Virus record (IMG/VR): IMGVR_UViG_3300028486_000080
Coordinates: 80,199 to 144,198 of that record
Source: a virus
Taxonomy: Duplodnaviria; Heunggongvirae; Uroviricota; Caudoviricetes
Strand: one strand, 5' to 3'
Length of the DNA: 64,000 bases
This document shows positions 34,271-51,471 of the stretch, one piece after another (position 1 is the stretch's first letter; every line of letters begins with the position of its first letter). The translations under genes were made by a program, and so were the position numbers. The notes under the pieces were generated by a model. It was not told the DNA's origin, did not search any database, and saw only the letters and a list, made by a program, of their open reading frames with translations.

Positions 34271-34945
34271 ATGGCGCGACCTGCGGGACTTCAAGTCAAG
34301 CTCCACCCTAACCTAACTCCCACTCAGAAGGAAGTTCTCCGCTACCCAGACTATCACTTGATCTTGGAGGGTCCGGCTGGTACCTCTAAGACCTACTTAG
34401 CCCTCGCTAGGGGACTTTCACTCTTAAAGAACGATGACGTAGAGAAGATCATCATCATACGCTCAGCCGTAGAGACTCGATCCATCGGCTTTCTACCGGG
34501 CGGCAGAGACGAAAAAATGGAAGCTTATGCAGCGCCATATATCCACCTGATCAGTGAGTTATCCCCCCAACGTAATTACGCCGCATTGATGAACACCAAA
34601 CTCTTGGAGTTCCATTCAACATCATTCTTGCGTGGCTGTACGTTCGATGATGCCTTCATCATCTGTGATGAGTATCAGAACATGAACGCGCACGAATTGG
34701 AGACCATAGTCACTCGTGTAGGTGAGCGCTCGCACTTGTGCTTATGCGGCGACGGTGATCAATCAGACTTACGCGGCGACGAAGCCCGAGAGCACAAGCT
34801 GGTTCTAGAAATCCTCACGCAGATGGAGGAATTCTACTATGTCAAGTTTGGTGTTGAGGATATCGTGCGCTCTGACTTCGTGCGCCGGTACTACGAGGTA
34901 AAAGAGCAGGTATACAAGGGTGGCGTCAAGAGAACTCTGGCTTGA
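34271..34945 (+). CDS. phoH: PhoH-like ATPase
   Basis: Walker A ILEGPAGTSKTYLA, Walker B FIICDEYQN; size and motif spacing typical of phage PhoH. Confidence 0.85.
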   Translation: MARPAGLQVKLHPNLTPTQKEVLRYPDYHLILEGPAGTSKTYLALARGLSLLKNDDVEKIIIIRSAVETRSIGFLPGGRDEKMEAYAAPYIHLISELSPQRNYAALMNTKLLEFHSTSFLRGCTFDDAFIICDEYQNMNAHELETIVTRVGERSHLCLCGDGDQSDLRGDEAREHKLVLEILTQMEEFYYVKFGVEDIVRSDFVRRYYEVKEQVYKGGVKRTLA

Positions 34946-35001: not shown

Positions 35002-35451
35002 TCAGTCCCGTGGCTCGAAAAGAAAGATATCGCAGTCAACATCAATAAGCTCCTGTATGATAAGAGGCTTGACGGTATCCCAAGAGAGACCGCCTAGCCC
35101 GCATCCTAGGGCAGGGATCGCAATGGAAGTGATCTTTTCTCCTTCTATGGCGCGACGCAACGCGGGCAACGCGGAAATAACATACTCCAGCTTCGAAGGC
35201 AGCCGGGGGGTGCTCTTCGTAGGGAAGCTGATGATGAATTGCGGAATAGTCAAGCCTGTGGCATGCACGGCGACTGTGCCTGTCTTTATGTCCCCGCCGC
35301 GACAAAGCTCGCGGTATTCGTGGAAGTATTCAGGAAAGCGCTCCTTGAAAGCGAGAGCGATGCCGCCGCCCATCACGCCTTCACAGTTGACTGCGTTAAC
35401 GAGGCACTGACACCCAGAGGCAAATAAGTCACCGTTAGTTGCGATTAACAT
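35002..35451 (-). CDS. macro domain (ADP-ribose binding/processing) protein
   Basis: LVNAVNCEGVMGGGIALAFKERFPE (macro N-x6-GGG-V motif) and IAIPALGCGLGG distal motif; start at ATG 35451. Confidence 0.7.
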   Translation of the reverse strand: MLIATNGDLFASGCQCLVNAVNCEGVMGGGIALAFKERFPEYFHEYRELCRGGDIKTGTVAVHATGLTIPQFIISFPTKSTPRLPSKLEYVISALPALRRAIEGEKITSIAIPALGCGLGGLSWDTVKPLIIQELIDVDCDIFLFEPRD

Positions 35452-35680
35452 GGGCGTCCTCTGCTTTATCACACCACTCAGCGAAAGCGCGCCCGAGCGC
35501 GGCATCATCCATCACTTCCAGCACTGTCTTAGCCATCGGTGCTGATAGCGGGTAGCTTTCACCGATACGTTCGGCGGCGAACGCTTGAATGAGAGGATTG
35601 TTATAGTCCCGACACGTCTTGCCTAGATCGATAGCCTCAGCGTCAGTTAGATTTCCCGCCCGTTGCTGTGTCGTCTGCAT
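35435..35680 (-). CDS. hypothetical small protein
   Basis: 81 aa from internal ATG of ORF 35435..35788. Confidence 0.3.
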   Translation of the reverse strand: MQTTQQRAGNLTDAEAIDLGKTCRDYNNPLIQAFAAERIGESYPLSAPMAKTVLEVMDDAALGRAFAEWCDKAEDAHVNRN

Positions 35681-36323: not shown

Positions 36324-36896
36324 CTAGGAAGAGGCATTCATCCTCGCTACGAGTTCATCCATATGAAAGGGGTAGTAATCGTTCTTTTCGACTGAGACGT
36401 TGAGGTAGCGGGGGTCGGGCGCTCCGTTGAGCATCACATCCTTCTCATGGATGTGTCCGTGGATGCACCACTTGTGTCCGTACCCCAGGCTCATCGGGTG
36501 CCAGGGGAAGTGGCACATCACGAAGGGCATCTTCCAAGGCTCAAGATCATGCCCCACGCGGCACGGCACGACCTTATAAAAGTGGCGTCGATATGCCAAT
36601 ACATCTAAGCCGTCATGGTTACCAGGGATGAGCACCTTCCGACCATTAAGGCGGGGCATGGTCTCATCCATAGCCTCTTCACCTTTCGAGCCGTAACCGA
36701 AGCCGAGATCACCTAGCATGTAAACTTTATCGTTAGGCTTAACACGGGCGTTCCAGCGCTCGATCATCACCTCATCCATTTCCTCTACACAGGAGAAGCC
36801 GGGGCGGATAAGGTTACCGTCATTGCCCTTAAAGGTTAATATCTTGGCGTGGCGGTAGTGTTGATCGGAGGTTACCCAGGTATCGTGCATCACCAA
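36324..36896 (-). CDS. calcineurin-like metallophosphoesterase
   Basis: motif I DTWVTSDQHYRH, motif II GDLGF, motif III GNHD and histidine-rich HGHIH block. Confidence 0.7.
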   Translation of the reverse strand: MVMHDTWVTSDQHYRHAKILTFKGNDGNLIRPGFSCVEEMDEVMIERWNARVKPNDKVYMLGDLGFGYGSKGEEAMDETMPRLNGRKVLIPGNHDGLDVLAYRRHFYKVVPCRVGHDLEPWKMPFVMCHFPWHPMSLGYGHKWCIHGHIHEKDVMLNGAPDPRYLNVSVEKNDYYPFHMDELVARMNASS

Positions 36897-37922: not shown

Positions 37923-37999
37923 TGGCACTAGCGAGTGGGTTCGAACCACTGTATCCCGATCCACAATCGAGCGCTCTCACCCATTGAGCTACGCTAGCA
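37923..37999 (-). tRNA. tRNA-His(GTG)
   Basis: minus-strand cloverleaf: acceptor gctagcg/cgctagt, anticodon arm ctcga-ttGTGga-tcggg, T-arm agtgg-gttcgaa-ccact, encoded CCA. Confidence 0.6.
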
Positions 38000-38001
38000 T
38001 T

Positions 38002-38085
38002 ATTGGTGCTCCAGGAGGGACTCGAACCCCCACGCCTAGGCACGTGGTCCTAAGCCACGCGTGTCTACCGTTTCACCACTGGAGC
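38002..38085 (-). tRNA. tRNA-Leu(TAG)
   Basis: acceptor gctccag pairs with ctggagc; anticodon loop cttagga; long variable arm; T-loop ttcgagt. Confidence 0.55.
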
Positions 38086-38087
38086 GG

Positions 38088-38161
38088 TGCCCTACCCCGG
38101 GCTCGAACCGGGAAAACTCGAATTTTAAGTCCGATACGTATACCAATTCCGTCAGTAGGGC
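38088..38161 (-). tRNA. tRNA, anticodon loop cttaaaa (TAA) in a short-variable-arm body
   Basis: acceptor gccctac/gtagggc, T-arm cccgg-ttcgagc-ccggg; class I length but a Leu-type anticodon, so identity is uncertain. Confidence 0.4.
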
Positions 38162-38185
38162 TGTTAGATTGTTACACTTTCTTAA

Positions 38186-38270
38186 TGGTGCGCCCGGTAG
38201 GACTTGAACCTACACGCCTTGCGACATTCCCTTTTGAGGAGAACGCGTCTACCAATTTCGCCACGAACGC
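38186..38270 (-). tRNA. tRNA-Leu(CAA)
   Basis: acceptor gcgttcg/cgggcgc (two G-U), D-loop aattggtaga, anticodon arm ttctc-ctCAAaa-gggaa, long variable arm, T-arm gtagg-ttcaagt-cctac, CCA encoded. Confidence 0.55.
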
Positions 38271-38271
38271 A

Positions 38272-38349
38272 TGGTGCCGATAGGAGGACTCGAACCTCCA
38301 TTTGCCCAGACTCTCGATCTGGTGCGTCTACCAATTTCGCCATATCGGC
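38272..38349 (-). tRNA. tRNA, anticodon unassigned (GAG-like loop with C33)
   Basis: acceptor gccgata/tatcggc, T-arm ggagg-ttcgagt-cctcc; anticodon stem-loop ambiguous. Confidence 0.4.
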
Positions 38350-38361
38350 TTTTGTAAGTTT

Positions 38362-38448
38362 TGGAGGACCGAGTGAGATTCGAACTCACGTTGGGCTTTC
38401 GCCTTCCGATTAAAAGTCGGGTGCCATCGTCCGCTCGGCCACCGGTCC
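38362..38448 (-). tRNA. tRNA, class II (Ser-like D-arm), anticodon unclear
   Basis: D-arm tggccgagcgg resembles tRNA-Ser; T-arm gtgag-ttcgaat-ctcac; anticodon loop reads cttttaa. Confidence 0.45.
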
Positions 38449-38633
38449 TGAAGACCTAGCCGTCGAGCGGTTAGGTCAGTCGATGGACGAGCTTTTTAAG
38501 TCGTAAGGCATGCAACGACAATCGCGCGGCGTGTGCGCCAGCGATTAAATGTCGGAAGATGTTCGTTGCGTTTGTCATGACGGGATATATAAGGTATCTA
38601 TATGCGTATGTCAACAGGTAAAGGTAAATAAAA

Positions 38634-38918
38634 ATGTCTGCGAATATTGCTCTGCTACCGCTCTCCACTGATGAGATTTTCAAACTTGTCAGGCGGCAGA
38701 TCAAAGCCAAAAAGCTGAAAACCGCAACGCTATCCACGAGAGCCGGATGCTTCTATTTCTACCTGCGCCTCGACAAAGACACGACCATCACTGTTGCTAT
38801 GTATCTAGATGGGCGGATGTCGATGTCGTACACCTCCCGCCTCGCTGGCAAGGAGCATGTCATCTGGTTCAGCAAACAGGAGCGTCAGGCATTGGCGCCA
38901 TCGTTGGTGCAACTGTGA
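38634..38918 (+). CDS. hypothetical small protein between tRNA clusters
   Basis: 94 aa ORF; weak. Confidence 0.25.
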   Translation: MSANIALLPLSTDEIFKLVRRQIKAKKLKTATLSTRAGCFYFYLRLDKDTTITVAMYLDGRMSMSYTSRLAGKEHVIWFSKQERQALAPSLVQL

Positions 38919-39056
38919 AGAAGCTGTGGCGGTGGATCACGTCTTGGTGGCGACCGAAGCCGCAGTACACTCAGATTGAATGGCAGGTTGATCTCGTAGT
39001 CATATGCGGCAAAGGCGCGGCGCGCATCTGGGGCATCGAAACCTCCGAAGAGGAAG

Positions 39057-39130
39057 TGGAGCGAATGAAGGGAATCGAACCCTTGTAACCTGATTGGAAG
39101 TCAGGGACTCTACCATTGAGCTACATCCGC
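39057..39130 (-). tRNA. tRNA-Gly(TCC)
   Basis: anticodon arm cctga-ctTCCaa-tcagg; T-arm aaggg-ttcgatt-ccctt; acceptor gcggatg/cattcgc. Confidence 0.6.
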
Positions 39131-39499
39131 ATTGTCTCGTTACGCTCTAGTATCTCCATAAACTCTACCGCCTTGTCCCGCTTGATCCGTAGATAAGGGA
39201 TCAGTTGGGGCAGCAGCGCCAGCAAGTCCAACTGCTTCGTGACATGCCACGTCAGCATCGGCTTTCTGTTATCCGGCACCTTCTTGTTACGGACGCGACC
39301 GCAGCCCGTAATCTCTTGGCACCACTCTATACTCCCGAAGTGCGTGTTGTGCACTTGAAGGCACAGGGCTCGATATCTTTTTCCACCGCGACCAGTGACC
39401 GTGTGGATTGAGAAGTTTCCCTCACCGTCAATGTAACCGGCGATCCAAGCCGCGTCGGTCTTTCGGAGGCGCTTTACAGTGCAAGCTCTAAGTACACGA
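39121..39499 (-). CDS. LAGLIDADG homing endonuclease (single-motif type), start uncertain
   Basis: AWIAGYIDGEGNFSI LAGLIDADG motif; the 195-aa ORF in the track runs through two tRNA genes, and no in-frame ATG lies between the motif and the tRNA at 39507. Confidence 0.5.
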
Positions 39500-39506
39500 G
39501 CGATGG

Positions 39507-39580
39507 TGGTTCTCCTGCGAGGATTCGAACCTCGATCTTCAGCTTCAAAGACTGCTATCCTACCGTTAGACGAAAGGAGA
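39507..39580 (-). tRNA. tRNA, anticodon unassigned
   Basis: T-arm cgagg-attcgaa-cctcg on the minus strand with complementary acceptor ends. Confidence 0.4.
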
Positions 39581-39581
39581 G

Positions 39582-39655
39582 TGGTTCTCGAAGCCTGACT
39601 CGAACAAGCATTCACCGCTCCAGAGGCGGGTGTCCTACCATTAGACGATTCGAGA
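39582..39655 (-). tRNA. tRNA, possibly Gln(CTG)
   Basis: acceptor tctcgaa/ttcgaga; anticodon loop ctctgga with a 4-bp stem. Confidence 0.4.
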
Positions 39656-39663
39656 ATGGACGC

Positions 39664-39739
39664 TGGAGCATAAGGTGGGACTCGAACCCACAGCCTCTTC
39701 GTTGGCAACGAAGCGCTCTAACCCTTGAGCTACAAATGC
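39664..39739 (-). tRNA. tRNA-Gly(GCC) with U5-U68 and U6-U67 acceptor mismatches
   Basis: D-arm gctc-aagggtta-gagc, anticodon arm cttcg-ttGCCaa-cgaag, T-arm gtggg-ttcgagt-cccac, CCA encoded; acceptor gcatttg vs cttatgc. Confidence 0.5.
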
Positions 39740-39740
39740 G

Positions 39741-40067
39741 TTAGCGTTGTCGTCCAGTCCAGTAAGCGTCCATGTTCTCTAGTGCCATCCGCAGATGGCG
39801 CTCTCCTTCAGGGTTTGCCGAGTGGATATTCCACCGGTAGTGTTTGCCAAATCCGTTACGCGCCCAAAGTTCAAGCGTATCGGCTACGATCTGAGAAGTG
39901 TTGTCTCCTCCGAGATCGTGATCGAAGGAGATACGATAGATGTCATAGTCAGGGTTCAACAGCGCTTGTAGTGCTTCCTCCGCCGTGCGCGCGATGATCC
40001 AACGCACGTAGTTGCCGGTTGGCGGCATACGCTCATCATCGATCCACAAGGCGCAGTAGTAACCCAT
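39741..40067 (-). CDS. hypothetical protein
   Basis: 108 aa ORF between tRNA genes; family not identified. Confidence 0.4.
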   Translation of the reverse strand: MGYYCALWIDDERMPPTGNYVRWIIARTAEEALQALLNPDYDIYRISFDHDLGGDNTSQIVADTLELWARNGFGKHYRWNIHSANPEGERHLRMALENMDAYWTGRQR

Positions 40068-40080
40068 CGTCTAAATTCCC

Positions 40081-40160
40081 TGGCGAGCATACCGGGACTC
40101 GAACCCGGTTTTCAAGGTGGACAGCCAAGCGTAATAACCCATATACGATACGCCCCAAGC
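40081..40160 (-). tRNA. tRNA-like element (atypical, possibly pseudo-tRNA)
   Basis: T-arm ccggg-actcgaa-cccgg and CCA present but no consistent anticodon arm found. Confidence 0.25.
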
Positions 40161-40163
40161 CAA

Positions 40164-40238
40164 TGGAGCCGGATACAGGACTCGAACCCGTGCAGCCGCC
40201 TTACAAGAGCGGTGCTCTACCTGTTGAGCTAATCCGGC
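40164..40238 (-). tRNA. tRNA-Thr(TGT)
   Basis: acceptor gccggat/atccggc; anticodon arm ccgct-ctTGTaa-ggcgg; D-arm tagctcaacaggtagagc. Confidence 0.6.
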
Positions 40239-40415
40239 GATGTGTTTGGGAGGGGGCGCGCGAAACGCGACTTGTATGATTACAGGCTTGCGCCCTGCGC
40301 AACCATACGCGCGCCCCCGGTGGTATCGAGACCACCGAGAGTGTTTGTGCCTTGAAGGCGCGTATGTTGCAGCATTTTGATCATGAGGGCTATATAAACC
40401 CTAATGATCCCGATG

Positions 40416-41786
40416 TCAAGAGCTAAGTGCTGCATTTTTTCTAATAGTCGAAAAGCTCTCGGGGTAGCGCACATAAGGGGCTTCCCATAACACTTCGAAC
40501 TGATGATGCTGCTGGACTCCGCGCTTGGACTTCTTACCTTTGTCAGTCACCGGCTCTTTGAAAACATCGACAAGCTCGCCGTTGATATGCGCCGCTGACG
40601 CCTTCATCGCATACTTGAACGTATCGCGGTTGACCTTCTGAAGAAGCCCACCACCCATACCAAACGCGATGTTGTCGATGGACCATCCATTGTTCATGAG
40701 CACATCCATCATATCGACAATCGTATCCGGCTCCATGCCGTCGCCTTGAATGATACGCAGATAGGGTGGCAGAACTTTGTAGCCTTTGCCGTTGGTCGTG
40801 AAACCGAACCGCTGCGCGAGGCTTTCGAGCACAGCGAGCACCACTTCATTCGGACGCCCACTGTCGGGACGAATGACAAGCGTACCCCCGCGCGACATGA
40901 CCTCATGACGTAGGCGGTCGCCCCAAATGTTTGAGACGGCATTGTAGATATCGTAAGAGTCCGACACGACTGAGAACAACGCCCCAGGCTTGGAGAATTG
41001 CTCAATCATATTCCGGTAGGCATCAACTTCGCGGTTGCGTCCCCACGAGGTGATGGTGCTGTGTTCCGCGGCGGGTATGGAGAACCCAGGCATGTCGATA
41101 TCGGAGTATGCTGCATAGTACTTGTCGAAGGCTTCCAGCGCCTCCATTGTGTCGGTGCCTTGGAAGTTGATCAGATGTGCGAGCCCACCCAGACCAGCGC
41201 TTTCGCTAGAGGATGCCCCACGTGCTCCGAAGTCGTGGAGCTTGTAGTCCAGACCATGAAGCGTATCGCATGTTAGCGCCATGTAGCGCTGGATGCGTTT
41301 TTTGATCTCGCGTGAGACAGTTGCGACAGTGGATGGATACCAAATTGCGCGCAACAGCGCGGTCTCCACGAAGCTCGTCAGCCAAGGCAGGCGATCATCA
41401 GTGTTCACGACCTGAATTTGTGGCGTGCCGATAGGTACAGGCAAGCCGCTGGGGAGAGATTGAATACGCAGCGGCAAGAATCCGCCGTGTTTGGTGACGA
41501 TGTAAATCCAGTCTTCGAGGTTGAAAGGAACCCCATGACGACGACATATGTCGCTGGCACGCGCAACATCGTCAGCGGTGATGGGATTACGCAGATAGTC
41601 CAGCGCAAACTGCACCGCACCGAAATGAACGATTTCGACGGGTCCATATTTGTCTTGATCGAACCAGCGCTTGGCTTCATTGCTCAAGCCGCGCGCTTCG
41701 ATGTAGGACCACACCTTCGTAGTCCCTGGAGGGTATTGAAGGTAGTGGCTCATCTTGTAGCTGTCGGTATGAAGAATCGGGTTCAT
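40416..41786 (-). CDS. nadV: nicotinamide phosphoribosyltransferase (NadV/NAMPT)
   Basis: N-terminus MNPILHTDSYKMSHYLQYPPGTT is the NAMPT signature; 456 aa; adjacent NMNAT gene. Confidence 0.85.
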   Translation of the reverse strand: MNPILHTDSYKMSHYLQYPPGTTKVWSYIEARGLSNEAKRWFDQDKYGPVEIVHFGAVQFALDYLRNPITADDVARASDICRRHGVPFNLEDWIYIVTKHGGFLPLRIQSLPSGLPVPIGTPQIQVVNTDDRLPWLTSFVETALLRAIWYPSTVATVSREIKKRIQRYMALTCDTLHGLDYKLHDFGARGASSSESAGLGGLAHLINFQGTDTMEALEAFDKYYAAYSDIDMPGFSIPAAEHSTITSWGRNREVDAYRNMIEQFSKPGALFSVVSDSYDIYNAVSNIWGDRLRHEVMSRGGTLVIRPDSGRPNEVVLAVLESLAQRFGFTTNGKGYKVLPPYLRIIQGDGMEPDTIVDMMDVLMNNGWSIDNIAFGMGGGLLQKVNRDTFKYAMKASAAHINGELVDVFKEPVTDKGKKSKRGVQQHHQFEVLWEAPYVRYPESFSTIRKNAALSS

Positions 41787-42109
41787 TTTATAGCTCCTAA
41801 GAAGCTCTCAATGAATGGGATGATGTCCGCATCATGATCGACGTGCGGGCGAACTACTCTGATGAGCAGCGCAGCCTTTTTGAGGTAATCTTGCTGCGAA
41901 TGCTCTTGCCACGTAGGGACACCATTTTTGATGAAGTAGAACCAACCACATCCGTCCGTATGGTTCCACCGACACAAACGGTCGTGCAGCACGATAGCTA
42001 CTTGCTGATCTAGCGTCAGCGCTGTTAGATGCTTCTGTTCCTCGATGAGTTTCGCCTTCTCGGCTTCAAGCTCAGCGATCTTCTTATCGATGCTGGATAC
42101 ACTGTTCAT
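41783..42109 (-). CDS. hypothetical protein between nadV and nadM
   Basis: 108 aa, N-terminal coiled coil; ATGA overlaps on both sides. Confidence 0.45.
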   Translation of the reverse strand: MNSVSSIDKKIAELEAEKAKLIEEQKHLTALTLDQQVAIVLHDRLCRWNHTDGCGWFYFIKNGVPTWQEHSQQDYLKKAALLIRVVRPHVDHDADIIPFIESFLGAIK

Positions 42110-43125
42110 ATCCCCACCATCACTTCCAGGATTGCGTAATGATCTTCGAAGAGCATGTCACGGTTGCGGCGTATCTCATCGAATGGCTTCCAGAAAGCTC
42201 GCTTGGCGTCGTCTCCACCTTTGACCTTTGGTAGAGACTCGCGCTCTTCGAGCTTGAACAGATACGCCTCGGTAATCGTGCGCCCACGTTCTGAGCGCAT
42301 CGGATCATCGAACGTCAACTGCTTGGTGATTGACCCTTCTAGAACCCGATCAGGGACTTTGATCTTAGTCTCTTCCTTGAGTTCTCGGAGCACTGCCTGC
42401 TTCAGAGTCTCAGTCTGATTGACGAAACCTCCAGGCAATGCCCACAAACCCCGCCCTGGAGAGGATCGGCGCTGCACCAGGAGGATGTGACCTGACTGGA
42501 CCACTACGGCATCTACCGTCTGGAATGTGGGCTTGTACGGGGCGACCGACCACTCTTCCTTATAGTCCTTGATAACGCGGAATTCTTCACGTAGCCAGCC
42601 GACGACAGGTTCAGCCGCCTTTCGGAAGGCTATGAAGTGTGCGTCGTTTATGAAGTCCTCGCGATAGACGCCCACCTCAAGCCAACGCCCACGGAACATG
42701 GTGCCGCTGAAGTCAGCAACCTCCTGCACCTCGACGTAATCCCATTGCGGGAACTTATGGAGGTAGTAGGTGGTGTGATCCTTATCGAGTCCGACGATAC
42801 CGATCTTGATTGGATCGGCGCTGAACTTTTTGTGCGTGATCGAATGGACGACATCCTGAAGTGATGCCACCCAACGATCATCGTTGTAGGTGTGGTCGTG
42901 CTGTACACCGAAGTGGATGCGCGGATCATTCTCCGGGAAGCACGCCTTGATCATGGCGATTCGCTCCGCGCTGGAGAACGGATTTCGGGTAGATCGGGAT
43001 TTCTGATGGGAGCCCAGAACGAAGATCAGGTTCTTCGATTTCTTCAGGGCTTCGAGGGCAACGTGATGGTGCCCTTTATGGTAGGGCTGGAATCGCCCCA
43101 CGAAAACGAGGTAGTCGTATTCCAT
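42106..43125 (-). CDS. natV: bifunctional NMN adenylyltransferase / Nudix ADP-ribose pyrophosphatase (NadM-Nudix, NatV-like)
   Basis: (H/T)xGH nucleotidyltransferase motif FVGRFQPYHKGH; Nudix box GGFVNQTETLKQAVLRELKEETKI in C-terminal half. Confidence 0.85.
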   Translation of the reverse strand: MEYDYLVFVGRFQPYHKGHHHVALEALKKSKNLIFVLGSHQKSRSTRNPFSSAERIAMIKACFPENDPRIHFGVQHDHTYNDDRWVASLQDVVHSITHKKFSADPIKIGIVGLDKDHTTYYLHKFPQWDYVEVQEVADFSGTMFRGRWLEVGVYREDFINDAHFIAFRKAAEPVVGWLREEFRVIKDYKEEWSVAPYKPTFQTVDAVVVQSGHILLVQRRSSPGRGLWALPGGFVNQTETLKQAVLRELKEETKIKVPDRVLEGSITKQLTFDDPMRSERGRTITEAYLFKLEERESLPKVKGGDDAKRAFWKPFDEIRRNRDMLFEDHYAILEVMVGI

Positions 43126-43207
43126 AGATAGCTCCTATCTATGAGGGTGGAACCCTCCCGTCTATCGGGTGGGCATGTAGTCTAATGTAGTATATCTTCA
43201 GCGGATG

Positions 43208-43807
43208 TCAAGCCTTATCGCGTATTTCAGCGTAAGAATGATCTAGGCGCGCGGGGAACGCCTTATCGATCTCCTGTGTCGAGAGGTACACGTCGTAATA
43301 CACCGCCTCATAGCCAAAGGGGCGATACTGATTGACGCCTCGTGGTGCGATAATGCGTGAGTAGGCTTTCTCGCCTGAGCGCTTTACCTCACTTTCATAG
43401 CTGCCATAGTAGTCGCCTGCGAAGATGAATTCGTAGACATGATCCTGCCAGACGCAAGCCGGAACTTTCACAAGGTATTGAGGACCGAGCTTCATCGGGC
43501 GAGCCCATGCCGTGATCTCGCCAGCCTTTAGCGCATCCAATACATGCCGCACAGAGGCGAGAGGCGCGCGGCGCTCGATGAGATTCAGTGCGTCGAGCAG
43601 CTTAGTGTCTGGCAATGCGCCATCAACACCGTTGTCGTTCTTGCCGACATGAGCGAGCGGAGGAGGACTCTGGTAGGCGTCGAGCGGCGGGTTGACTAGC
43701 GGCTCTTGCCGCACAACACGTGAGACTTCAGCCAAGCGCTCCGGGTTGCGGAATACCTGCACTTCGGGTTCAGCCTTGAACAGTTTCCATAGAGCTTTGA
43801 ACATCAC
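43208..43807 (-). CDS. hypothetical protein
   Basis: 199 aa ORF. Confidence 0.45.
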   Translation of the reverse strand: MMFKALWKLFKAEPEVQVFRNPERLAEVSRVVRQEPLVNPPLDAYQSPPPLAHVGKNDNGVDGALPDTKLLDALNLIERRAPLASVRHVLDALKAGEITAWARPMKLGPQYLVKVPACVWQDHVYEFIFAGDYYGSYESEVKRSGEKAYSRIIAPRGVNQYRPFGYEAVYYDVYLSTQEIDKAFPARLDHSYAEIRDKA

Positions 43808-43880
43808 TCCACCTCATCAAATGGCGCCAGCACGCAGAACACGAGCACAGCGAGACACAGGACAATAATGATCTGATAGA

Positions 43881-44078
43881 TCATGAACGGCTGCGCTTTT
43901 TCTCGCGTTCCTCATCCGCTTCTAGCTTCCATTTAGGACAAGCGGCGCCCGTCTTGGGATTGATTTGCGAAGGCGTACCGAAACGTGTCCAGTGCGCGAT
44001 CTTGCGGGCGATGTAGTCGAGTTTAGGTTTGTCAGCCACGGTAGCGATCTCCACGAGAATGACCGATATATCGTCCAC
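43881..44078 (-). CDS. hypothetical small protein
   Basis: 65 aa ORF. Confidence 0.3.
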   Translation of the reverse strand: MDDISVILVEIATVADKPKLDYIARKIAHWTRFGTPSQINPKTGAACPKWKLEADEEREKKRSRS

Positions 44079-44253
44079 GAAGGGCTGAAATGACCGCCAG
44101 AACAGCCAAAATGACCGCGACGAGGGTATACAGCGGCGCTGAAGAGAGGGTGCTGAATGTCACCACTGAACCGATAGCGTTGCCGATGAGTAGCCAGCGC
44201 ATAGTTATCTCCTGTTGAGCCCTAGCATTAACGTAAATGATTAGGGTTGTCAA
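44032..44253 (-). CDS. small membrane protein
   Basis: 73 aa with two hydrophobic helices. Confidence 0.3.
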   Translation of the reverse strand: MTTLIIYVNARAQQEITMRWLLIGNAIGSVVTFSTLSSAPLYTLVAVILAVLAVISALRGRYIGHSRGDRYRG

Positions 44254-44298
44254 GCGCCAATATCACTACCATATTAGTGTTAACCATTGGAGGGTCAT

Positions 44299-44505
44299 AT
44301 GAAACTATTCATCGCTCTAGCAGTCACATTCTTACTAGCGTTCAGTGCTCAGGCGGCGCCTAAGCACCATTCGGGCGCATATAACCATCACGCGCATAAA
44401 CATCACGACGCTCGGCGCTGGCATCAGAACCGTTGGCGCCATCGGCATCATGGTCCGCGTCGCCCGCGTCCCTACTTCGTGTTCCCGTTCTACTTTGGCT
44501 GGTGA
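44299..44505 (+). CDS. secreted histidine-rich small protein
   Basis: GGAGGG RBS then ATG 44299; signal peptide MKLFIALAVTFLLAFSAQA; mature part HH..HKHHD..RRWH..RHRHHG. Confidence 0.45.
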   Translation: MKLFIALAVTFLLAFSAQAAPKHHSGAYNHHAHKHHDARRWHQNRWRHRHHGPRRPRPYFVFPFYFGW

Positions 44506-44528
44506 TACCTTGACACCCTTATCCTGAC

Positions 44529-44804
44529 TTGTTAAGGTTAAGGATGATCAAGATTAAAGCACAGCTATACGTGCAAGGTCGTGGCGTCGCGCGCGACCTT
44601 GCCGACATCACCATCTGGACAGAGATCGACAACGCCCATCACGGGTATCGGATCAGCTTGCCTGATGTCGAAATCAATGGACAGGTTAAGAAGCGGCGTA
44701 GCGCGCACCAGAATATTTTGCACGTCCTGCAAGAGGTGCTGGATAACGCGGACCTGAAAAAGCTTGGGGAGGACTACATCCCCAGAGGCGGCGTAATCAG
44801 GTAA
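44529..44804 (+). CDS. hypothetical small protein
   Basis: 91 aa ORF. Confidence 0.35.
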   Translation: MLRLRMIKIKAQLYVQGRGVARDLADITIWTEIDNAHHGYRISLPDVEINGQVKKRRSAHQNILHVLQEVLDNADLKKLGEDYIPRGGVIR

Positions 44805-44805
44805 T

Positions 44806-44879
44806 TGGAGACGCGAGCCGGAATCGAACCGACATCCGATGAGTTGCAGTCAACTGCATAGCCATTCTGCCATCGCGTC
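44806..44879 (-). tRNA. tRNA, anticodon unassigned
   Basis: acceptor gacgcga/tcgcgtc, T-arm gccgg-aatcgaa-ccgac, CCA encoded. Confidence 0.4.
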
Positions 44880-44885
44880 ATGTAG

Positions 44886-44973
44886 TGGAAGACCAGAAGG
44901 GATTCGAACCCTTGTAGGGCTCGCGCCCGGCTGATTAAGAGTCAGCTACCATTAGCCACTCGGTCACTGGTCT
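44886..44973 (-). tRNA. tRNA, class II, anticodon unassigned
   Basis: acceptor agaccag/ctggtct, T-arm aaggg-attcgaa-ccctt, long variable arm; anticodon loop reads ctcttaa. Confidence 0.45.
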
Positions 44974-45031
44974 ATATTTCAGTCCTAAGGGCATTTTCAC
45001 TGCGCAGTGAAAATGCCCATTCTAGTGAAAG

Positions 45032-45107
45032 TGGTACCCCGTCTAGGAATCAAACCTAGTCAATGACCGGGTGTAAACCGGATGCCGTCCCATCTGGCTC
45101 ACGGGGC
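45032..45107 (-). tRNA. tRNA, possibly Val(TAC)
   Basis: acceptor accccgt/acggggc (G-U), T-arm ctagg-aatcaaa-cctag; anticodon loop tttacac. Confidence 0.45.
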
Positions 45108-45120
45108 ATAATTCATAGTA

Positions 45121-45211
45121 TGGTGCTCGTGCTTGGATTCGAACCAAGTCGAGAACGCTGATCTGGCGCTGAAAGGTTTATAAGACCTCCCTGTGTCCAA
45201 CACCCACGAGC
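45121..45211 (-). tRNA. tRNA, class II, anticodon unassigned
   Basis: acceptor gctcgtg/cacgagc, T-arm cttgg-attcgaa-ccaag, 91 nt with long variable arm; anticodon loop reads cttataa. Confidence 0.45.
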
Positions 45212-45264
45212 GTATTTGCAAGTGGGCTACATATTCGTCCTTCCATAACCTTCTTCCTTCAAAT

Positions 45265-45339
45265 GGTAGACCCGGCTGGCTCTGCCCCAGCGACCTTTCG
45301 ATTATCGGTCGAACGCTCTCCTCACTGAGCTACGAGTCT
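45265..45339 (-). tRNA. tRNA, possibly Ile(GAT), noncanonical T-loop
   Basis: D-arm tagctcagtgagg; anticodon arm ttcga-ccGATaa-tcgaa; T-arm gctgg-ggcagag-ccagc. Confidence 0.4.
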
Positions 45340-45345
45340 ATGTAT

Positions 45346-45421
45346 TGGTGGACAAGGCGAGGATCGAACTCGCTGCCTCCTGATTGCAAGTCAGGCGCTC
45401 TCCCAGATGAGCTACATGCCC
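45346..45421 (-). tRNA. tRNA-Ala(TGC)
   Basis: anticodon arm cctga-ctTGCaa-tcagg; G3-U70 Ala identity pair; D-arm tagctcatctgggagagc; T-arm gcgag-ttcgatc-ctcgc; U6-U67 mismatch. Confidence 0.6.
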
Positions 45422-45504
45422 GTAACTAAATTCAACATGGCGAGGGCTGATTAACGACCTACCCTTCTTACCTCCCGGAACGGTCATGCGGGCGGCCATT
45501 TATT

Positions 45505-45602
45505 TGGCGGATGCGGGATGGATTCGAACCTCCACGACTGTTACGTCCAAACGGTTTTCAAGACCGGTGCCGTTACCCAGCAATCTTTCGGCTTACGCAT
45601 CC
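45505..45602 (-). tRNA. tRNA-Ser(TGA)-like, imperfect T/acceptor arms
   Basis: anticodon region ggcaccggtcttgaaaaccg nearly identical to bacterial tRNA-Ser(UGA); long variable arm; T-stem has a mismatch. Confidence 0.45.
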
Positions 45603-45606
45603 AAAG

Positions 45607-45700
45607 TGGCGGAAGGTCTGGGATTCGAACCCAGGTGACACGGGAACGCCGGTCAAACGCGCTAGCAACGCGCCGGTTTCAGCCTCTCACCCAACCTTCC
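45607..45700 (-). tRNA. tRNA-Ser(GCT)
   Basis: acceptor ggaaggt/accttcc, anticodon arm gcgcg-ttGCTag-cgcgt, long variable arm, T-arm ctggg-ttcgaat-cccag. Confidence 0.55.
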
Positions 45701-45705
45701 AATTC

Positions 45706-46215
45706 TCACGCGATCAACACTAGCCGTAAGTGAAGCTCAGTGACGATTGCTTCCAAAGTCGATAGCTGGATTTCTCCGTTGCCGTTTTCGACCTTCGATA
45801 TCGTCGCCTGCCTAACTCGTGCCAGATTAGCCAACTGCTGTTGAGTCATCCCCTTTTGGCGCCGCAGTGTTCTTATCTGCTCGCCAAGCGGGAGATCATC
45901 AAATTGGTTGAACCAAATCCAGGCTGTTTCGATGTCCTCAGGTGTGGTCATGAACCATTCGGTTCTACCGCGCCTGTGTTCCTTGAGCTTGTTGTGTATT
46001 GCTCGCTCAAGGGTCGTGGCATCGTCGCACCAGATGATTAGATCAACCACCGGCTCCTCTTGCATCGCGGACTTGAGTGATAGAATCCGTTTTACCGGAT
46101 CGCCTCTCGACATGCCGATCTTCAACAAGTAGGGACCGAAGCGCTTTGTCTGGCTCGGATAGTGAAACGCGTAAACTGCCTCCTGACCTTTACCTATCTG
46201 TTTCTCTACGTGCAT
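45706..46215 (-). CDS. T5orf172 (GIY-YIG-like) domain protein fused to XRE-family HTH
   Basis: N-terminus PYLLKIGMSRGDPVKRILSL...TEWF matches the T5orf172 domain; C-terminal LRRQKGMTQQQLANLARVRQATISKVENG is a classic XRE HTH; sits inside a tRNA array. Confidence 0.6.
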   Translation of the reverse strand: MHVEKQIGKGQEAVYAFHYPSQTKRFGPYLLKIGMSRGDPVKRILSLKSAMQEEPVVDLIIWCDDATTLERAIHNKLKEHRRGRTEWFMTTPEDIETAWIWFNQFDDLPLGEQIRTLRRQKGMTQQQLANLARVRQATISKVENGNGEIQLSTLEAIVTELHLRLVLIA

Positions 46216-46279
46216 CGTCCTTAACCTTCATTCGTTACCGCGTATGTTAACCATACCACGATTAACTAAGAAGGTCAAT

Positions 46280-46370
46280 TGGTGGGTGACGGACGGAATC
46301 GAACCTCTTGCCATTAAGGATCGGGGTTACAACCCGACGACAGCCCAGCCATCCTTACTTGCGTCACCCA
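46280..46370 (-). tRNA. tRNA-like element, weak T-stem (possible pseudo-tRNA)
   Basis: acceptor gggtgac/gtcaccc and CCA present, T-loop aatcgaa, but T-stem pairs poorly. Confidence 0.25.
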
Positions 46371-46519
46371 AATTTCTCCTACCGCGGCGCCATGAAAGGC
46401 GAAGGTGTACGCCAATCATAGCGCCGCTCGAATTGGTGAGGAGCCACCGGGTGGACCCGCGCCCTCTGTACCGCTAGCCTCACGGCACCCTATCTTCCCC
46501 TCCTCAGGGAAGTCTTGAT

Positions 46520-46597
46520 TTGGCTGGTCCGGTAGGAATCGAACCTACCTCTATGCTGGTTAACAGCCAGCCGCTTTCACCTTGATTGCTACGGACC
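46520..46597 (-). tRNA. tRNA-Asn(GTT)
   Basis: acceptor tggtccg/cggacca; anticodon arm gctgg-ctGTTaa-ccagc; T-arm gtagg-ttcgatt-cctac. Confidence 0.6.
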
Positions 46598-46598
46598 A

Positions 46599-46675
46599 AT
46601 GGTGCTTGTGGATGGTGCTGCCCCACCGACGCGCGCCTTTTCAAGACGCCGCTCTACTACCTGAGCTACACAAGC
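46599..46675 (-). tRNA. tRNA, anticodon unassigned, noncanonical T-loop
   Basis: acceptor gcttgtg/cacaagc with CCA; T-loop lacks TTC. Confidence 0.35.
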
Positions 46676-47153
46676 AAAGTCTATGTCTTACCTTTCTCCG
46701 AACACGAAAAAGCCGCCTAGATTTCTCTGGCGGCTTGGACCCGATAAACTGTGGAAGCTTCGCTTACGCACACCCATCCGTTCCCAGCCGCATCCCTGCG
46801 ACGGACTTATTAAACGAATAAATGCTGGCGCATATTACGAGCATTACACAGTCATCCTACAGCGCCGCGTGGGGCGCGATTACGTTGATGTGGGAGATAT
46901 AAACCCAATCCACCCTATTGTCAAGGGGTTATTTTAACTTTTTTCTTATCCACCTTCGGGATGCGCGCCCAAGCGACAACTGTCTTGTCAGCTATCGCGT
47001 CTGATCCTAGGGATGTGCGCCAACAAAACGGACCACGGGGTCCAACATGCTTTGTAGCCCGATAGGAGCCGACAATGGGCACCAATCCCTCTACCAGATC
47101 ACACAGTAGGAGTAACCGCCCGCGACGCGGCGGGCGGCTATAATTCCACTCCA

Positions 47154-47459
47154 TCAGCGCCCCCGCTTACCAAATTCCTTCGTGCGCGCCGGGGCATCAT
47201 TCTGCGGACCACCAGGACCAACAAGCGCCGGTTGCTGCGTCGAGAATGACTGTACGACGCTCTTCTTCAGCACTTCGATACGTGCCACATCAAACCACGC
47301 CTCATCGGGCAAGGTCTGTGCCTTACCTACAACCTCGGGAGTGATCAGGAAGCGTACGCATCCATTGAGAAATTCTGACTTTGCAGTCGCGATACCCTTG
47401 AAGCCGGTGACAGTATCTTTAACCTTATCACCAAGCTCTGGCGTCTTGTCGGTTGACAT
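47154..47459 (-). CDS. hypothetical protein
   Basis: 101 aa ORF. Confidence 0.4.
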   Translation of the reverse strand: MSTDKTPELGDKVKDTVTGFKGIATAKSEFLNGCVRFLITPEVVGKAQTLPDEAWFDVARIEVLKKSVVQSFSTQQPALVGPGGPQNDAPARTKEFGKRGR

Positions 47460-47488
47460 TACAAGTCTCCTATGTTAACCTATTTCCC

Positions 47489-47764
47489 ATGAAACAGGTA
47501 AATGACATTCAAAAGCTGCTGCTAGCTGAGGGCTGGATTCGCATCACCTCAAAGCAATGGGTTAAGGGTGACACTATCCTATCCCTTTCTGAGGAAGTCG
47601 TTGAACTCCTCGATACTTTGTATAACCGGGGGTTCATCGGAGGGCTACACCGCGGTCTCTACGAGCAAGAGACCATGGAGGACGTTGAAGCGGGCGATCA
47701 GCAAGCTTTGGCTGAAGCCCGCGCCAACTACTTAGCCCTTGCAAGCCGTCAGATCGATCTTTGA
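47489..47764 (+). CDS. hypothetical protein (start at ATG 47489)
   Basis: internal ATG of ORF 47453..47764 preceded by gttaacc motif. Confidence 0.4.
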   Translation: MKQVNDIQKLLLAEGWIRITSKQWVKGDTILSLSEEVVELLDTLYNRGFIGGLHRGLYEQETMEDVEAGDQQALAEARANYLALASRQIDL

Positions 47765-48106
47765 TCGAATGAAGCGTGCAACGTCGTCAGCGTTGAGCAC
47801 ACCAGAGTGCTCACGGTGAAAGCGATTGCGCTCCCAATCACACTCGGTGATGCCTTTCACTTCCCAGCCTGGACCCTCGCACATGTACTTGCCGTTGGTG
47901 TCCTGCACCACGACATCGGCGTGCCCTCGCCACATGAAAGTGTGACCGTCAACGTCGATCTTATTCCAGTCCCCCTTCTCTGTCGTGATGCGCTTGCCGT
48001 GGAAGTCTTTGTCGCGTTTCCGAAAGCCGCCGCTCATATGGGTAACCTTTCCCTGATACAACAACACCAGCCTACCCAGAGGTAAGCTGGCGTCAAGGTG
48101 CCCCAT
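47732..48106 (-). CDS. hypothetical protein
   Basis: 124 aa ORF, start preceded by the aaccttaat motif. Confidence 0.4.
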   Translation of the reverse strand: MGHLDASLPLGRLVLLYQGKVTHMSGGFRKRDKDFHGKRITTEKGDWNKIDVDGHTFMWRGHADVVVQDTNGKYMCEGPGWEVKGITECDWERNRFHREHSGVLNADDVARFIRSKIDLTACKG

Positions 48107-48174
48107 ATATTAAGGTTAAGTGGCTTCCCAGATAGCTTGCCACAAGTGAGGTTATTTAGGTTAATTTACAAGTG

Positions 48175-48477
48175 TCAAAAAAGGATCGACCGGACAAGCT
48201 CAGCCCGTGGATCGCCGTCAGCCTCTAACTTCTCAACCCACTCTTCTAGGAGCAACCCGCCCTTGTCGTTATTGCACTGATGACATACGAACATACATAG
48301 AACGTGTGATCCACCCTTACACTTGGGGATGATGTGATCACGAGTGATGTTCCGAGGATTGCACTCAGGCTCTTCGCGGCGCTTGTTCATTGGCTGCCCA
48401 CAGTAGGGGCACGGTGTGCCTCCGTAGTCCTGGTACTTTCTCTTGGCGCGCTTTCCACCGCCAGCGTTCGGAATCAT
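48175..48477 (-). CDS. HNH endonuclease (small)
   Basis: CPYCGQ...RDHIIPKCKGGSHVLCMFVCHQCNNDKG: HNH with paired Cys zinc site. Confidence 0.65.
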   Translation of the reverse strand: MIPNAGGGKRAKRKYQDYGGTPCPYCGQPMNKRREEPECNPRNITRDHIIPKCKGGSHVLCMFVCHQCNNDKGGLLLEEWVEKLEADGDPRAELVRSILF

Positions 48478-48492
48478 GACACGTCCGTGTGT

Positions 48493-48567
48493 TGGTGCCG
48501 AAGGGGTGAATTGAACACCCTACCCTTCCCTTACGAGGGGATTGCTCTACCGATGAGCTACAACGGC
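48493..48567 (-). tRNA. tRNA, possibly Thr(CGT), with U5-U68/U6-U67 acceptor mismatches
   Basis: D-arm tagctcatcggtagagc; anticodon loop ctcgtaa; T-arm gggtg-ttcaatt-caccc; acceptor gccgttg vs cttcggc. Confidence 0.45.
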
Positions 48568-48613
48568 GTCAATGATCGAGTGATCATAGAGTGAACTTAT
48601 GATCGCTCGGTTA

Positions 48614-48690
48614 TGGTGCCCCAAAGAGGATTCGAACCTCTGACCTTCACCATACCAAGGTGCTGCTCTGCCGGGCTGAGCTACCGGGGC
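48614..48690 (-). tRNA. tRNA, possibly Thr(GGT)
   Basis: T-arm agagg-ttcgaat-cctct; anticodon loop ttggtat with a 4-bp stem. Confidence 0.45.
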
Positions 48691-48696
48691 GTATTT

Positions 48697-48770
48697 TGGC
48701 AGGTGCCGTAGGAATCGAACCCACGTAAACCGGGTTGGAGCCGGTTGCTCTACCATTGAGCTAGACACCT
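48697..48770 (-). tRNA. tRNA-Trp(CCA)
   Basis: anticodon arm accgg-ctCCAac-ccggt; D-arm tagctcaatggtagagc; acceptor aggtgtc/ggcacct. Confidence 0.6.
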
Positions 48771-48776
48771 ATAACT

Positions 48777-48851
48777 TGGTCGCCCTGGTGGGAATTGAAC
48801 CCAACGCAGCCCGCTTGAGAGGCGAGTGGTCTACCACTAACCTACAGGGCG
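48777..48851 (-). tRNA. tRNA, possibly Glu(CTC)
   Basis: acceptor cgccctg/cagggcg; anticodon arm ctcgc-ctCTCaa-gcggg. Confidence 0.45.
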
Positions 48852-48855
48852 AAAT

Positions 48856-48932
48856 TGGTCCCGCATGTCGGACTTGAACCGACGACCTTCCGCTTGAAGG
48901 GCGGCTGCTCTTCTCTTCTAAGCTAATGCGGG
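48856..48932 (-). tRNA. tRNA, possibly Glu(TTC)
   Basis: acceptor cccgcat/atgcggg; T-arm gtcgg-ttcaagt-ccgac; anticodon loop ccttcaa. Confidence 0.45.
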
Positions 48933-49037
48933 TTATTCGCGAGATTGGTTCGTACCTACTTTTGGCCCCGCAGGCACCAATTTCACTTACGAACCAATCT
49001 CTCGGAAAAGGTAGGATGCTCCTACCCTTTCGGTATT

Positions 49038-49115
49038 TGGTAGCGGTAGTCGGATTCGAACCGACGATTTCCGAGCTTATGAGGCTGGTGAGGACGACCG
49101 CTCCTCCATACCGCA
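49038..49115 (-). tRNA. tRNA, anticodon unassigned
   Basis: T-arm gtcgg-attcgaa-ccgac on the minus strand with CCA; D/anticodon arms irregular. Confidence 0.35.
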
Positions 49116-49118
49116 AAA

Positions 49119-49195
49119 TGGTCTACCGTGTAGGATTCGAACCCACGTGACCGTGTACCCAAAACACGTGCCTGACCAGACTAGGCTAACGGTAG
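49119..49195 (-). tRNA. tRNA-Pro(TGG)
   Basis: acceptor ctaccgt/acggtag; anticodon arm cgtgt-ttTGGgt-acacg; T-arm gtggg-ttcgaat-cctac. Confidence 0.55.
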
Positions 49196-49455
49196 TAACG
49201 AAACGCAAAACGCACCGACTCCTGAACCCCATGCTCACGCATGTTGATCTGGAACCAGTGCGAATTTGTAGAGATTTTGGAAGTGTTTAGTGCTTACAGT
49301 TCGCCGGTTCCGGTCAACGCGTAGTTGGCCAGGGCATCGGTTCGAACATGGTAACAAAAGAAAGCACGGAACACATTCCTCAAGTTTGAATTTGCGAGAC
49401 AAGCCCTGTATAGCCGGTTTATCTCAATCACGCTGCGGGATATATAACCCCTAAT

Positions 49456-49920
49456 TCATCGCTTGTCAAGCCCCCTAAGACGAAATTCTCCATTTATTGC
49501 GTCGAGGACTTCTTTATCGTGAAGCGCATCAATGACGAACCCCAATTGCGCATCCGAGAAAGTCGATACCATTGTGCTCGGTTTCCCATCCCATTTGACG
49601 TACTTGTTGTTGAATACCTCAGGCTTCACCGGATAGAACTCACCGATAGTGCCCTTGACGATGAAGTCACCGACTGACACATGGAGCGGACCTTCAAGGG
49701 TATTCGTGATCAGTTCTAAGGATATGCCCCCATCACGGTCGATGTGGGTATTACAAGTGATATTGCTTCCCGCCCATGCAGCGATGCCGTCGAAGCATTC
49801 CATGCTGCCGGTCCACTCGATGGCTTCAACCGATACGGAACGCCCTACGAAGATTGCGGGTAACGGACTATTCTCAAAACGCATATGTCTATCGCCCTGT
49901 AGACTGCATCGGATCGGCAT
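49456..49920 (-). CDS. hypothetical protein
   Basis: 154 aa ORF. Confidence 0.4.
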   Translation of the reverse strand: MPIRCSLQGDRHMRFENSPLPAIFVGRSVSVEAIEWTGSMECFDGIAAWAGSNITCNTHIDRDGGISLELITNTLEGPLHVSVGDFIVKGTIGEFYPVKPEVFNNKYVKWDGKPSTMVSTFSDAQLGFVIDALHDKEVLDAINGEFRLRGLDKR

Positions 49921-51371: not shown

Positions 51372-51471
51372 TATAACACCTCTTGCTTAATGCTCGCGTT
51401 AACCTTACTTTTATTATTGACAGTTGTCAACCTCTGTGCTCTGATGTTAACGTTAATGAATAGTTAGCTTT

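Follow-up and report, generated by a model that had tools for sequence, protein, structure and literature searches.

A probable three-gene NAD+-rebuilding operon, nadM-orf108-nadV, in a large uncultured tailed phage

The Nampt (nicotinamide phosphoribosyltransferase) and Nmnat (nicotinamide mononucleotide adenylyltransferase) enzymes of Vibrio phage KVP40 defined NARP2, a pathway in which nicotinamide adenine dinucleotide (NAD+) is rebuilt from nicotinamide, phosphoribosyl pyrophosphate (PRPP) and ATP (10.1101/2024.02.11.579819; 10.64898/2026.01.28.702374). When expressed, the KVP40 pair abolishes Thoeris, DSR2 and, in later work, aRES defence, and NARP2 is found in ~1% of phages (10.1101/2024.02.11.579819; 10.64898/2026.01.28.702374). 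The related system NARP1-AP consists of Adps, the macro-domain phosphatase Adpp and Namat, with Adpp extending NARP1 against defence that makes modified ADP-ribose. Here we describe a locus of the NARP2 type in a 64,000-nucleotide stretch of an uncultured member of the Caudoviricetes (IMG/VR record IMGVR_UViG_3300028486_000080, positions 80,199 to 144,198). This whole stretch is hereafter called the window; it covers 64 kb of a genome of at least 165 kb. The window very probably carries a single translationally coupled operon, nadM-orf108-nadV, that would rebuild NAD+ on a large tailed phage with a probable alphaproteobacterial host.

The nadM-orf108-nadV operon and its enzymes

The three genes lie on the minus strand in the order nadM-Nudix (42106..43125, 339 amino acids), orf108 (41783..42109, a small helical protein of 108 amino acids) and nadV (40416..41786, 456 amino acids, starting MNPILHTDSYK). 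An earlier note on this DNA had placed both enzyme genes exactly; both open reading frames (ORFs) are intact and profile searches confirm their families. It had also described the two genes as adjoining, and orf108 was absent from its account. Instead, this third gene of the operon sits between the other two and overlaps each by 4 nucleotides. The nadM stop codon and the orf108 start codon share an ATGA within GGGATATGAACAGT, and the orf108 stop and nadV start share another within ATAAAATGAACCCG. The Shine-Dalgarno sequence TAGGAG precedes both nadM, at 8 nucleotides from its ATG, and nadV. Upstream of nadM, a candidate control region (43126..43211, minus strand) contains this TAGGAG and a single promoter-like site, TTGACA-16-TACATT (43211-43184). 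The site is a candidate only: promoter-like matches across the region, like terminator-like matches inside the operon, were not above shuffle expectation. Taken as a group, the overlapping ATGA sequences, the Shine-Dalgarno sequences and the lone promoter-like site ahead of nadM argue for a three-gene operon.

The profile searches proposed in the earlier note (NAPRTase, CTP_transf_like and NUDIX) matched every one of these families. The first gene product, NadM-Nudix, matches Pfam CTP_transf_like (2.3e-14) and NUDIX (1.6e-20), and scores 400.8 bits against the NCBIfam model for the bifunctional enzyme (NF003786), for which the equivalog cut-off is 397. It aligns end to end with the NadM-Nudix proteins of Synechocystis (slr0787; PDB 2qjo, 300.6 bits) and Francisella tularensis (PDB 2qjt, 217.8 bits), and over its full length (residues 7-339) with KVP40 NatV, at 32% identity (E 3e-55). 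All the motifs of a bifunctional NadM-Nudix, (H/T)xGH, SxTxxR and the Nudix box, are present, as GRFQPYHKGH at residue 10, SGTMFR at residue 140 and GFVNQTETLKQAVLRELKEETKI at residues 233-255. In the last of these the penultimate G of the consensus Gx5Ex7REUxEExGU is replaced by K.

The last gene product, NadV, matches Pfam NAPRTase (2.8e-58) and NAMPT_N (6.7e-19), phrog_448 (1.3e-143) and NCBIfam NF006629 (551.6 bits against an equivalog cut-off of 405). Its end-to-end alignment with human NAMPT (PDB 2gvg and others) shows 49% identity and scores 423.7 bits; a divergent C-terminal tail of ~30 residues falls outside the NAMPT alignment. Seventeen residues of the nicotinamide/PRPP site of NAMPT were mapped: Y18, F193, R196, D219, H247, S275, D279, R311, D313, G353, D354, G383, G384, R392, K400, K415 and K423, D219 being the nicotinamide-specificity Asp and H247 the autophosphorylated His. 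All 17 are conserved in NadV, including Y10, F186, R189, D212 and H242, so that both the specificity Asp (D212) and the autophosphorylated His (H242) are kept. The absence of catalytic residues on alignment had been named in advance as what would overturn the assignment; the 17 active-site residues checked in NadV and the three motifs of NadM are present.

NadV is a phosphoribosyltransferase of the Nampt clade on the evidence of NF006629, phrog_448 and human NAMPT, and the Nmnat is encoded in the same phage genome and indeed in the same operon. The family scores, catalytic residues and KVP40 NatV homology therefore bear out the view, already taken in the earlier note, that the pair is of the established NARP2 type rather than novel.

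On this sequence evidence, we predict the following activities with high confidence. NadV would convert nicotinamide and PRPP into nicotinamide mononucleotide (NMN), which the N-terminal domain of NadM would then adenylate, using ATP, to yield NAD+. At the C terminus of NadM, the Nudix domain would split ADP-ribose into AMP and ribose-5-phosphate, which the host enzyme Prs can turn back into PRPP. Taken together, these reactions would recycle both products of NADase cleavage.

Candidate roles of orf108 and of the operon

The orf108 protein has no Pfam, NCBIfam or fold match and falls only into phrog_12218, a family of unknown function. An exhaustive HMMER search recovered 928 representative clusters of stand-alone proteins of ~100 amino acids. 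An alignment of 62 sequences has an N-terminal helix followed by the motif LHxxLCxWNHTDGCGWxY, in which H42, C46, H50 and C54 are invariant (H-x3-C-x3-H-x3-C), a residue pattern from which we infer a metal site. Longer members have N-terminal extensions that are uninformative by eye. The family is almost wholly phage-borne, with one real match in the 185,579 bacterial genomes scanned.

To place the family in its genomic setting, loci were collected from IMG/VR, metagenomes and bacterial genomes by a back-translated motif scan that carries no NAD-gene information (loci are given below by our own L numbers). The scan found 24 loci in IMG/VR, and in 12 of them the family member adjoins NadM, mostly immediately upstream, with NadV after it. 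Adding the window and L011 to these NadM-adjoining cases gives at least eight groups with less than 65% mutual identity in the small protein. Another 71 members came from metagenomes, 19 with NadM in the locus, most loci being short; among the ~26 with room on both sides, ~9 contain NadM or NadV, three contain a macro domain only and 14 contain none of these. Overall, between about a third and a half of the family members in motif-selected contigs lie within NadM/NadV/macro clusters.

The order of genes in these clusters varies. Besides the order orf108-NadM-(macro)-NadV, the arrangement of the window (NadM-orf108-NadV) recurs in L066, L071, L170 and L188, the order NadV-orf108-NadM is found in L157 and L162, and L127 has NadM followed at a distance by orf108-macro-NadV. 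In L026, L130, L167 and L183 the family member stands next to a macro gene and NadM is absent. A conserved neighbourhood with a shuffled order is the usual signature of functional linkage, and the common denominator of these neighbourhoods looks like ADP-ribose processing, by Nudix or macro domains. One locus, L017, has a neighbourhood rich in ADP-ribose and nucleotide processing: its orf108-NadM-NadV cluster is followed by a Nuc_deoxyri_tr2 protein (6300-6896; 7.4e-34), which is nucleoside 2-deoxyribosyltransferase-like, and then by a clear Macro domain (7069-7536).

From motif and neighbourhood, we would give about even chances that orf108 is a metal-binding accessory or regulatory partner of the NadM/ADP-ribose-processing part of the module, which we hold to be its likeliest role. 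A more tentative proposal is that some phage NARP2 modules have a third component that has so far escaped notice, and that orf108 represents it. As such, it might act as a metal-binding partner and regulate, stabilise or redirect ADP-ribose processing by NadM-Nudix or macro domains, or it might inhibit a host NAD/ADP-ribose enzyme and travel with the salvage genes. The same tentative proposal would have NARP2 cores surrounded by a variable shell, made up of this CCHH protein, a macro clade marked by NAYTQ and a phrog_547 metallophosphoesterase (both described below), in parallel to Adpp in NARP1.

Several observations weigh against assigning orf108 to NAD+ salvage. The KVP40 NARP2 pair functions as two genes without orf108, and no NadM-bearing phage isolate, KVP40 included, has a detectable homologue of it. 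Among cultured phages the family is confined to 20 records of Bacillus Bequatrovirus, where its neighbourhood is unrelated. More than half of the members with enough flanking sequence are not near NAD genes, and of 80 IMG/VR loci selected solely for their similarity to NadM and surveyed within 7 kb, only six contain the family, so the link is not obligatory. All this could be accounted for if orf108 were an unrelated small phage gene, either a moron or an independent anti-defence protein, that inserts into a variable region and has no tie to NAD+ salvage. The 14 of ~26 roomy metagenome loci without NadM, NadV or macro and the unrelated small genes around the Bacillus copies fit such an origin. 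So does roseobacter phage DSS3P8, in which an unrelated ORF in the position of orf108 suggests that the site between the enzyme genes may be a hotspot for small genes. That ORF, gp111 (L001, 8615-8929), encodes a hypothetical protein of ~104 amino acids between NadM and NadV; we considered it as an orf108 homologue and rejected it for want of BLASTP similarity (E 17). An insertion of this kind is conceivable, yet we think it the less convincing account. The family is rare, yet it lies beside NadM, NadV or macro genes in at least eight divergent lineages and at least four gene orders, and its stop and start codons often overlap those of its neighbours. That it pairs with macro genes even in loci without NadM speaks for ADP-ribose biology rather than an accident of position.

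As for the operon as a whole, the KVP40 analogy suggests that it would keep NAD+ available during infection and so blunt NAD-depleting defences such as Thoeris, DSR, SIR2-HerA, SEFIR and aRES. We somewhat favour this anti-defence role. Confidence is no higher because sequence does not tell it apart from a purely metabolic benefit. NARP2 over-produces NAD+ even when no defence system is present (10.1101/2024.02.11.579819; 10.64898/2026.01.28.702374), and since NAD+ is made irrespective of defence, the genes could be accounted for just as well by a benefit to metabolism alone. The operon could thus be auxiliary metabolism only, supplying more NAD+ for phage nucleotide and DNA metabolism in a nutrient-poor host, with no role specific to immunity. 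Its neighbours are classic auxiliary genes (MazG-like, PhoH, ribonucleotide reductase, ThyX and tRNAs), and nadV is common in large phages: homologues number 2017 records in our phage collection, against 485 for NadM-Nudix, and NadV has been reported in 22-33% of medium and jumbo phages (PMC9503650). We nevertheless regard an exclusively metabolic function as unlikely. The KVP40 pair cancels defence when expressed, and the module recurs beside ADP-ribose-processing genes (macro, Nudix), an association that makes most sense in a conflict setting. The pair itself is a recurrent unit, with NadM and NadV no more than 7 kb apart in 70 of the 80 NadM-selected loci. The metabolic and counter-defence roles are not mutually exclusive.

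Macro domains, a metallophosphoesterase and the surrounding genes

The earlier note had pointed to a macro-domain gene and a metallophosphoesterase gene within 8 kb as parts of a combined anti-NADase/anti-ADP-ribosylation island. Both genes are real, and lie on the minus strand 4.9 and 3.5 kb, respectively, beyond nadV. The macrodomain protein (35002..35508, 168 amino acids; Pfam Macro 2.7e-20) is of the DarG2/AdfM type. It matches NCBIfam antitoxin_DarG (2.6e-54) over profile positions 3-149 of 338 only and has no C-terminal DarT-binding domain. Its PDB matches include 5m3i (116 bits; Mycobacterium tuberculosis DarG) and 5m31 (100.6 bits), and it shares 31% identity with AdfM, gp104 of phage PhiKZ (E 6e-19). 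Aligned with DarG and AdfM, it keeps the VN asparagine, the FPTK catalytic Lys and LGCGLGGL, and by sequence it thus has the features of a DarG2-like orphan antitoxin. AdfM removes the ADP-ribose that DarT2 places on DNA, and represents a validated phage counter-defence family (PMC13309987). Being DarG-type and AdfM-like with FPTK retained, the window macrodomain is best read as a candidate DNA ADP-ribosyl glycohydrolase and an independent candidate anti-DarTG2 factor. An Adpp/Poa1p-like identity was considered and rejected, as Poa1p chains score only ~22-23 bits against 116 for DarG and 4.9 kb separate the gene from the operon.

The metallophosphoesterase (36324..36896, 190 amino acids), a possible accessory, is calcineurin-like (Metallophos 5.1e-06; phrog_547 4.2e-48), and the one solved structure related to it is aq_1665 (1xm7), a protein of unknown function. 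A homologue is encoded within 7 kb of NadM in 10 of the 80 NadM-selected loci, with L005 as one extra case, and directly follows nadV in L041 (2742-3341), L042 (9615-10214) and L045 (10250-10810). The other phosphoesterase-bearing loci are L043, L046, L047, L052, L057, L060 and L089. Most of all these homologues belong to one NadM lineage.

Macro-like ORFs are found within 7 kb in 20 of the 80 loci; every one lies on the nadV side, in most cases between the two enzyme genes, and there is none upstream. After de-replication at 70% NadM identity, 53 lineages remain, of which eight have a macro ORF, four the phosphoesterase and four the orf108 family. The operon-embedded macros (for example L014, 7554-8021; L032, 9614-10096; L035, 6100-6633; and those of 20 of loci L038-L117) form a distinct clade, GCNCFxTMGxGIA...NAYTQ...YIGMGLAGGD, that is without the DarG lysine and is nearest by profile to BT1257, SCO6735 and Poa1p. 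By analogy, this NAYTQ clade may be to NARP2 what the phosphatase Adpp is to NARP1-AP.

Phosphoesterase and macro domains thus turn up repeatedly beside NARP2 cores, though only in a minority of them, which supports the intuition behind the island in general; for the window itself the idea fares less well. It would require the operon, the metallophosphoesterase and the macrodomain to cooperate as one unit, for example with the phosphoesterase or macro protein making Nudix-recyclable substrates from modified ADP-ribose products. The recurrence of both genes near NadM (20 loci and 10 loci, as above) and the precedent of Adpp, a macro-domain phosphatase that extends NARP1, favour such a unit. However, the embedded macros belong to another clade, with NAYTQ where DarG has FPTK, and the DarG2/AdfM family acts on ADP-ribosylated DNA rather than on NAD metabolites (PMC13309987). 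In the cultured phages with both positions tabulated, the phosphoesterase is not beside NadM. Moreover, ADP-ribose is not a required NARP2 substrate, and the operon of the window is parted from the two genes by 12 tRNA genes, a LAGLIDADG-like ORF and a cREC gene. We therefore consider one cooperating unit in this phage doubtful.

The genes in between, tRNAs and cREC, look like RNA repair. The cREC (cyclic-phosphate processing receiver) gene (39741..40067, minus strand; Pfam cREC_REC 2.7e-16) lies between the operon and the tRNA array and is probably related to RNA repair and outside the NAD module. It is one of a set of RNA-repair or stress-type genes, scattered through the tRNA region, that also includes an RlaP nucleotidyltransferase (52330-53142, minus strand; 5.6e-55), a MazG-like pyrophosphatase with PHROG matches only (33508-34173, minus strand) and PhoH (34271-34945, plus strand). 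The window ORFs scanned included neither an RNA ligase nor a kinase. The genes of this region match phage RNA-repair neighbourhoods described by Iyer et al. (PMC9503650), which the phosphoesterase, cREC and MazG-like genes also fit. The LAGLIDADG homing-endonuclease-like ORF (39121-39708, minus strand) scores 22.4 bits in Pfam, just below the cut-off of 23.1, and is wedged between a tRNA-Gly and two tRNA-Gln genes; as listed it overlaps the tRNA-Gln genes, so its true start must be internal.

The window has ~30 tRNA genes, all on the minus strand (37923-53442) and interleaved with small ORFs. Rfam adds two tRNAs that ARAGORN does not list (45267-45339 and 46603-46675), and the ARAGORN tRNA-Val (45032-45107) and tRNA-Ile (45121-45211) are missing from the Rfam table. 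Between tRNA genes lie two more mobile-nuclease-like ORFs, one for a protein with T5orf172/MUG113 (GIY-YIG-like) and helix-turn-helix domains (45706-46215, minus strand) and the other an ORF of 100 amino acids with an HNH-like pattern, CPYC...HIIPK...CHQCN, judged by eye (48175-48477, minus strand). Unusual cargo elsewhere comprises a voltage-gated-type ion channel (10998-11969, plus strand; Ion_trans 1.6e-30), a TadE/VWA protein (5020-6369, minus strand), an SPFH/Band 7 protein (31550-32494, plus strand) and a CAP-domain protein (32762-33292, minus strand).

The virus is a large, uncultured, siphovirus-like phage with RcGTA-like tail genes and probably an alphaproteobacterial host. The window encodes a terminase, a baseplate hub, RcGTA-like tail proteins (DUF2460, phiJL001 gp84 N-terminal domain, BR0599) and an endolysin amidase, as well as a class II ribonucleotide reductase and ThyX. 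The host is indicated by a permuted two-piece tmRNA gene of alphaproteobacterial type (50199-50551, minus strand; RF01849 104.5 bits, RF04321 108.5 bits), for which ARAGORN predicts the tag peptide ANDNSPMVEDFRIAA. A megablast search of the locus against 50,697 phage records gave no DNA-level match, and IMG/VR relatives of NadV reach only 56% identity. The closest protein relatives come from roseobacter and rhizobial phages, with roseophage DSS3P8 at 54% identity for NadV and 48% for NadM. The same sequence is also present in public assemblies, one from Logan and one a 165-kb contig from JGI (JGI/Logan, SRR14117728).

Comparison with characterised NAD+ and ADP-ribose systems

Conceptually, the two-enzyme core adds nothing to what is known, NARP2 being established and its genes common in large phages. 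What the analysis adds is a third gene, conserved but uncharacterised, and the shell of accessory macro and phosphoesterase genes that surrounds NARP2 cores. The characterised NARP2 of KVP40 is a bare pair; the window and many uncultured contigs add a conserved, apparently metal-binding small protein, and other lineages wire the NadM/NadV pair to a distinct macro clade or to a metallophosphoesterase. Since a macro-domain phosphatase extends NARP1, these accessory genes are specific candidates for what comes next in the arms race over NAD+. A single phage also holds both a candidate anti-DarTG2 macrodomain and an NAD+-rebuilding operon.

With NARP1-AP the locus shares the principle of an NAD+ reconstitution operon with an added ADP-ribose-handling accessory gene, and the macro ORFs between NadM and NadV in other contigs (L014, L032, L035) are an analogous arrangement. 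The core enzymes differ, however; the operon in the window has the CCHH protein and no macro domain, and the window's own macro is not Poa1p/Adpp-like. It is highly improbable that NadV is a NARP1-type Namat using ADP-ribose pyrophosphate from an Adps partner: Namat and Nampt are homologous and the weaker PDB matches of NadV, labelled Nampt, score 205-218 bits, but NadV is far nearer to bona fide NAMPT (423.7 bits, 49%), whose PRPP/nicotinamide site it has complete, its operon also encodes an NMN adenylyltransferase, no phage has been reported with both NARP1 and NARP2, and no PRPS-like (Adps) ORF is present among the window ORFs scanned, which are part of the ORFs in 64 kb of at least 165 kb. 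We discarded the Namat assignment on the NAMPT score and the conserved active site.

The window macrodomain resembles AdfM and DarG2 in being stand-alone and DarG-type, with the FPTK Lys and the Asn. It differs in that its phage is not a chimallivirus and in being nearer to bacterial DarG than to AdfM. NadM and NadV align end to end with the Synechocystis and Francisella NadM-Nudix proteins and with human NAMPT, respectively, and have all the catalytic motifs, whereas the window genes are viral and the C-terminal tail of NadV diverges.

The closest comparison remains KVP40. The earlier note had called the window genes the same pair as KVP40 NadV/NatV; this holds for the enzyme families, which are the same two, both phage-encoded, with the same bifunctional NadM-Nudix architecture, and does not hold for their arrangement. 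The window genes form one operon, whereas KVP40 natV (at 94.5 kb) is not beside nadV, which is absent from the surrounding 86-104 kb and from the 8 kb on either side of natV. The window operon further has a coupled CCHH protein inserted between its enzymes, of which KVP40 has no detectable homologue. Finally, KVP40 is T4-like, whereas the phage of the window is siphovirus-like with RcGTA-like tail genes, and its enzymes are nearest to those of the DSS3P8 type.

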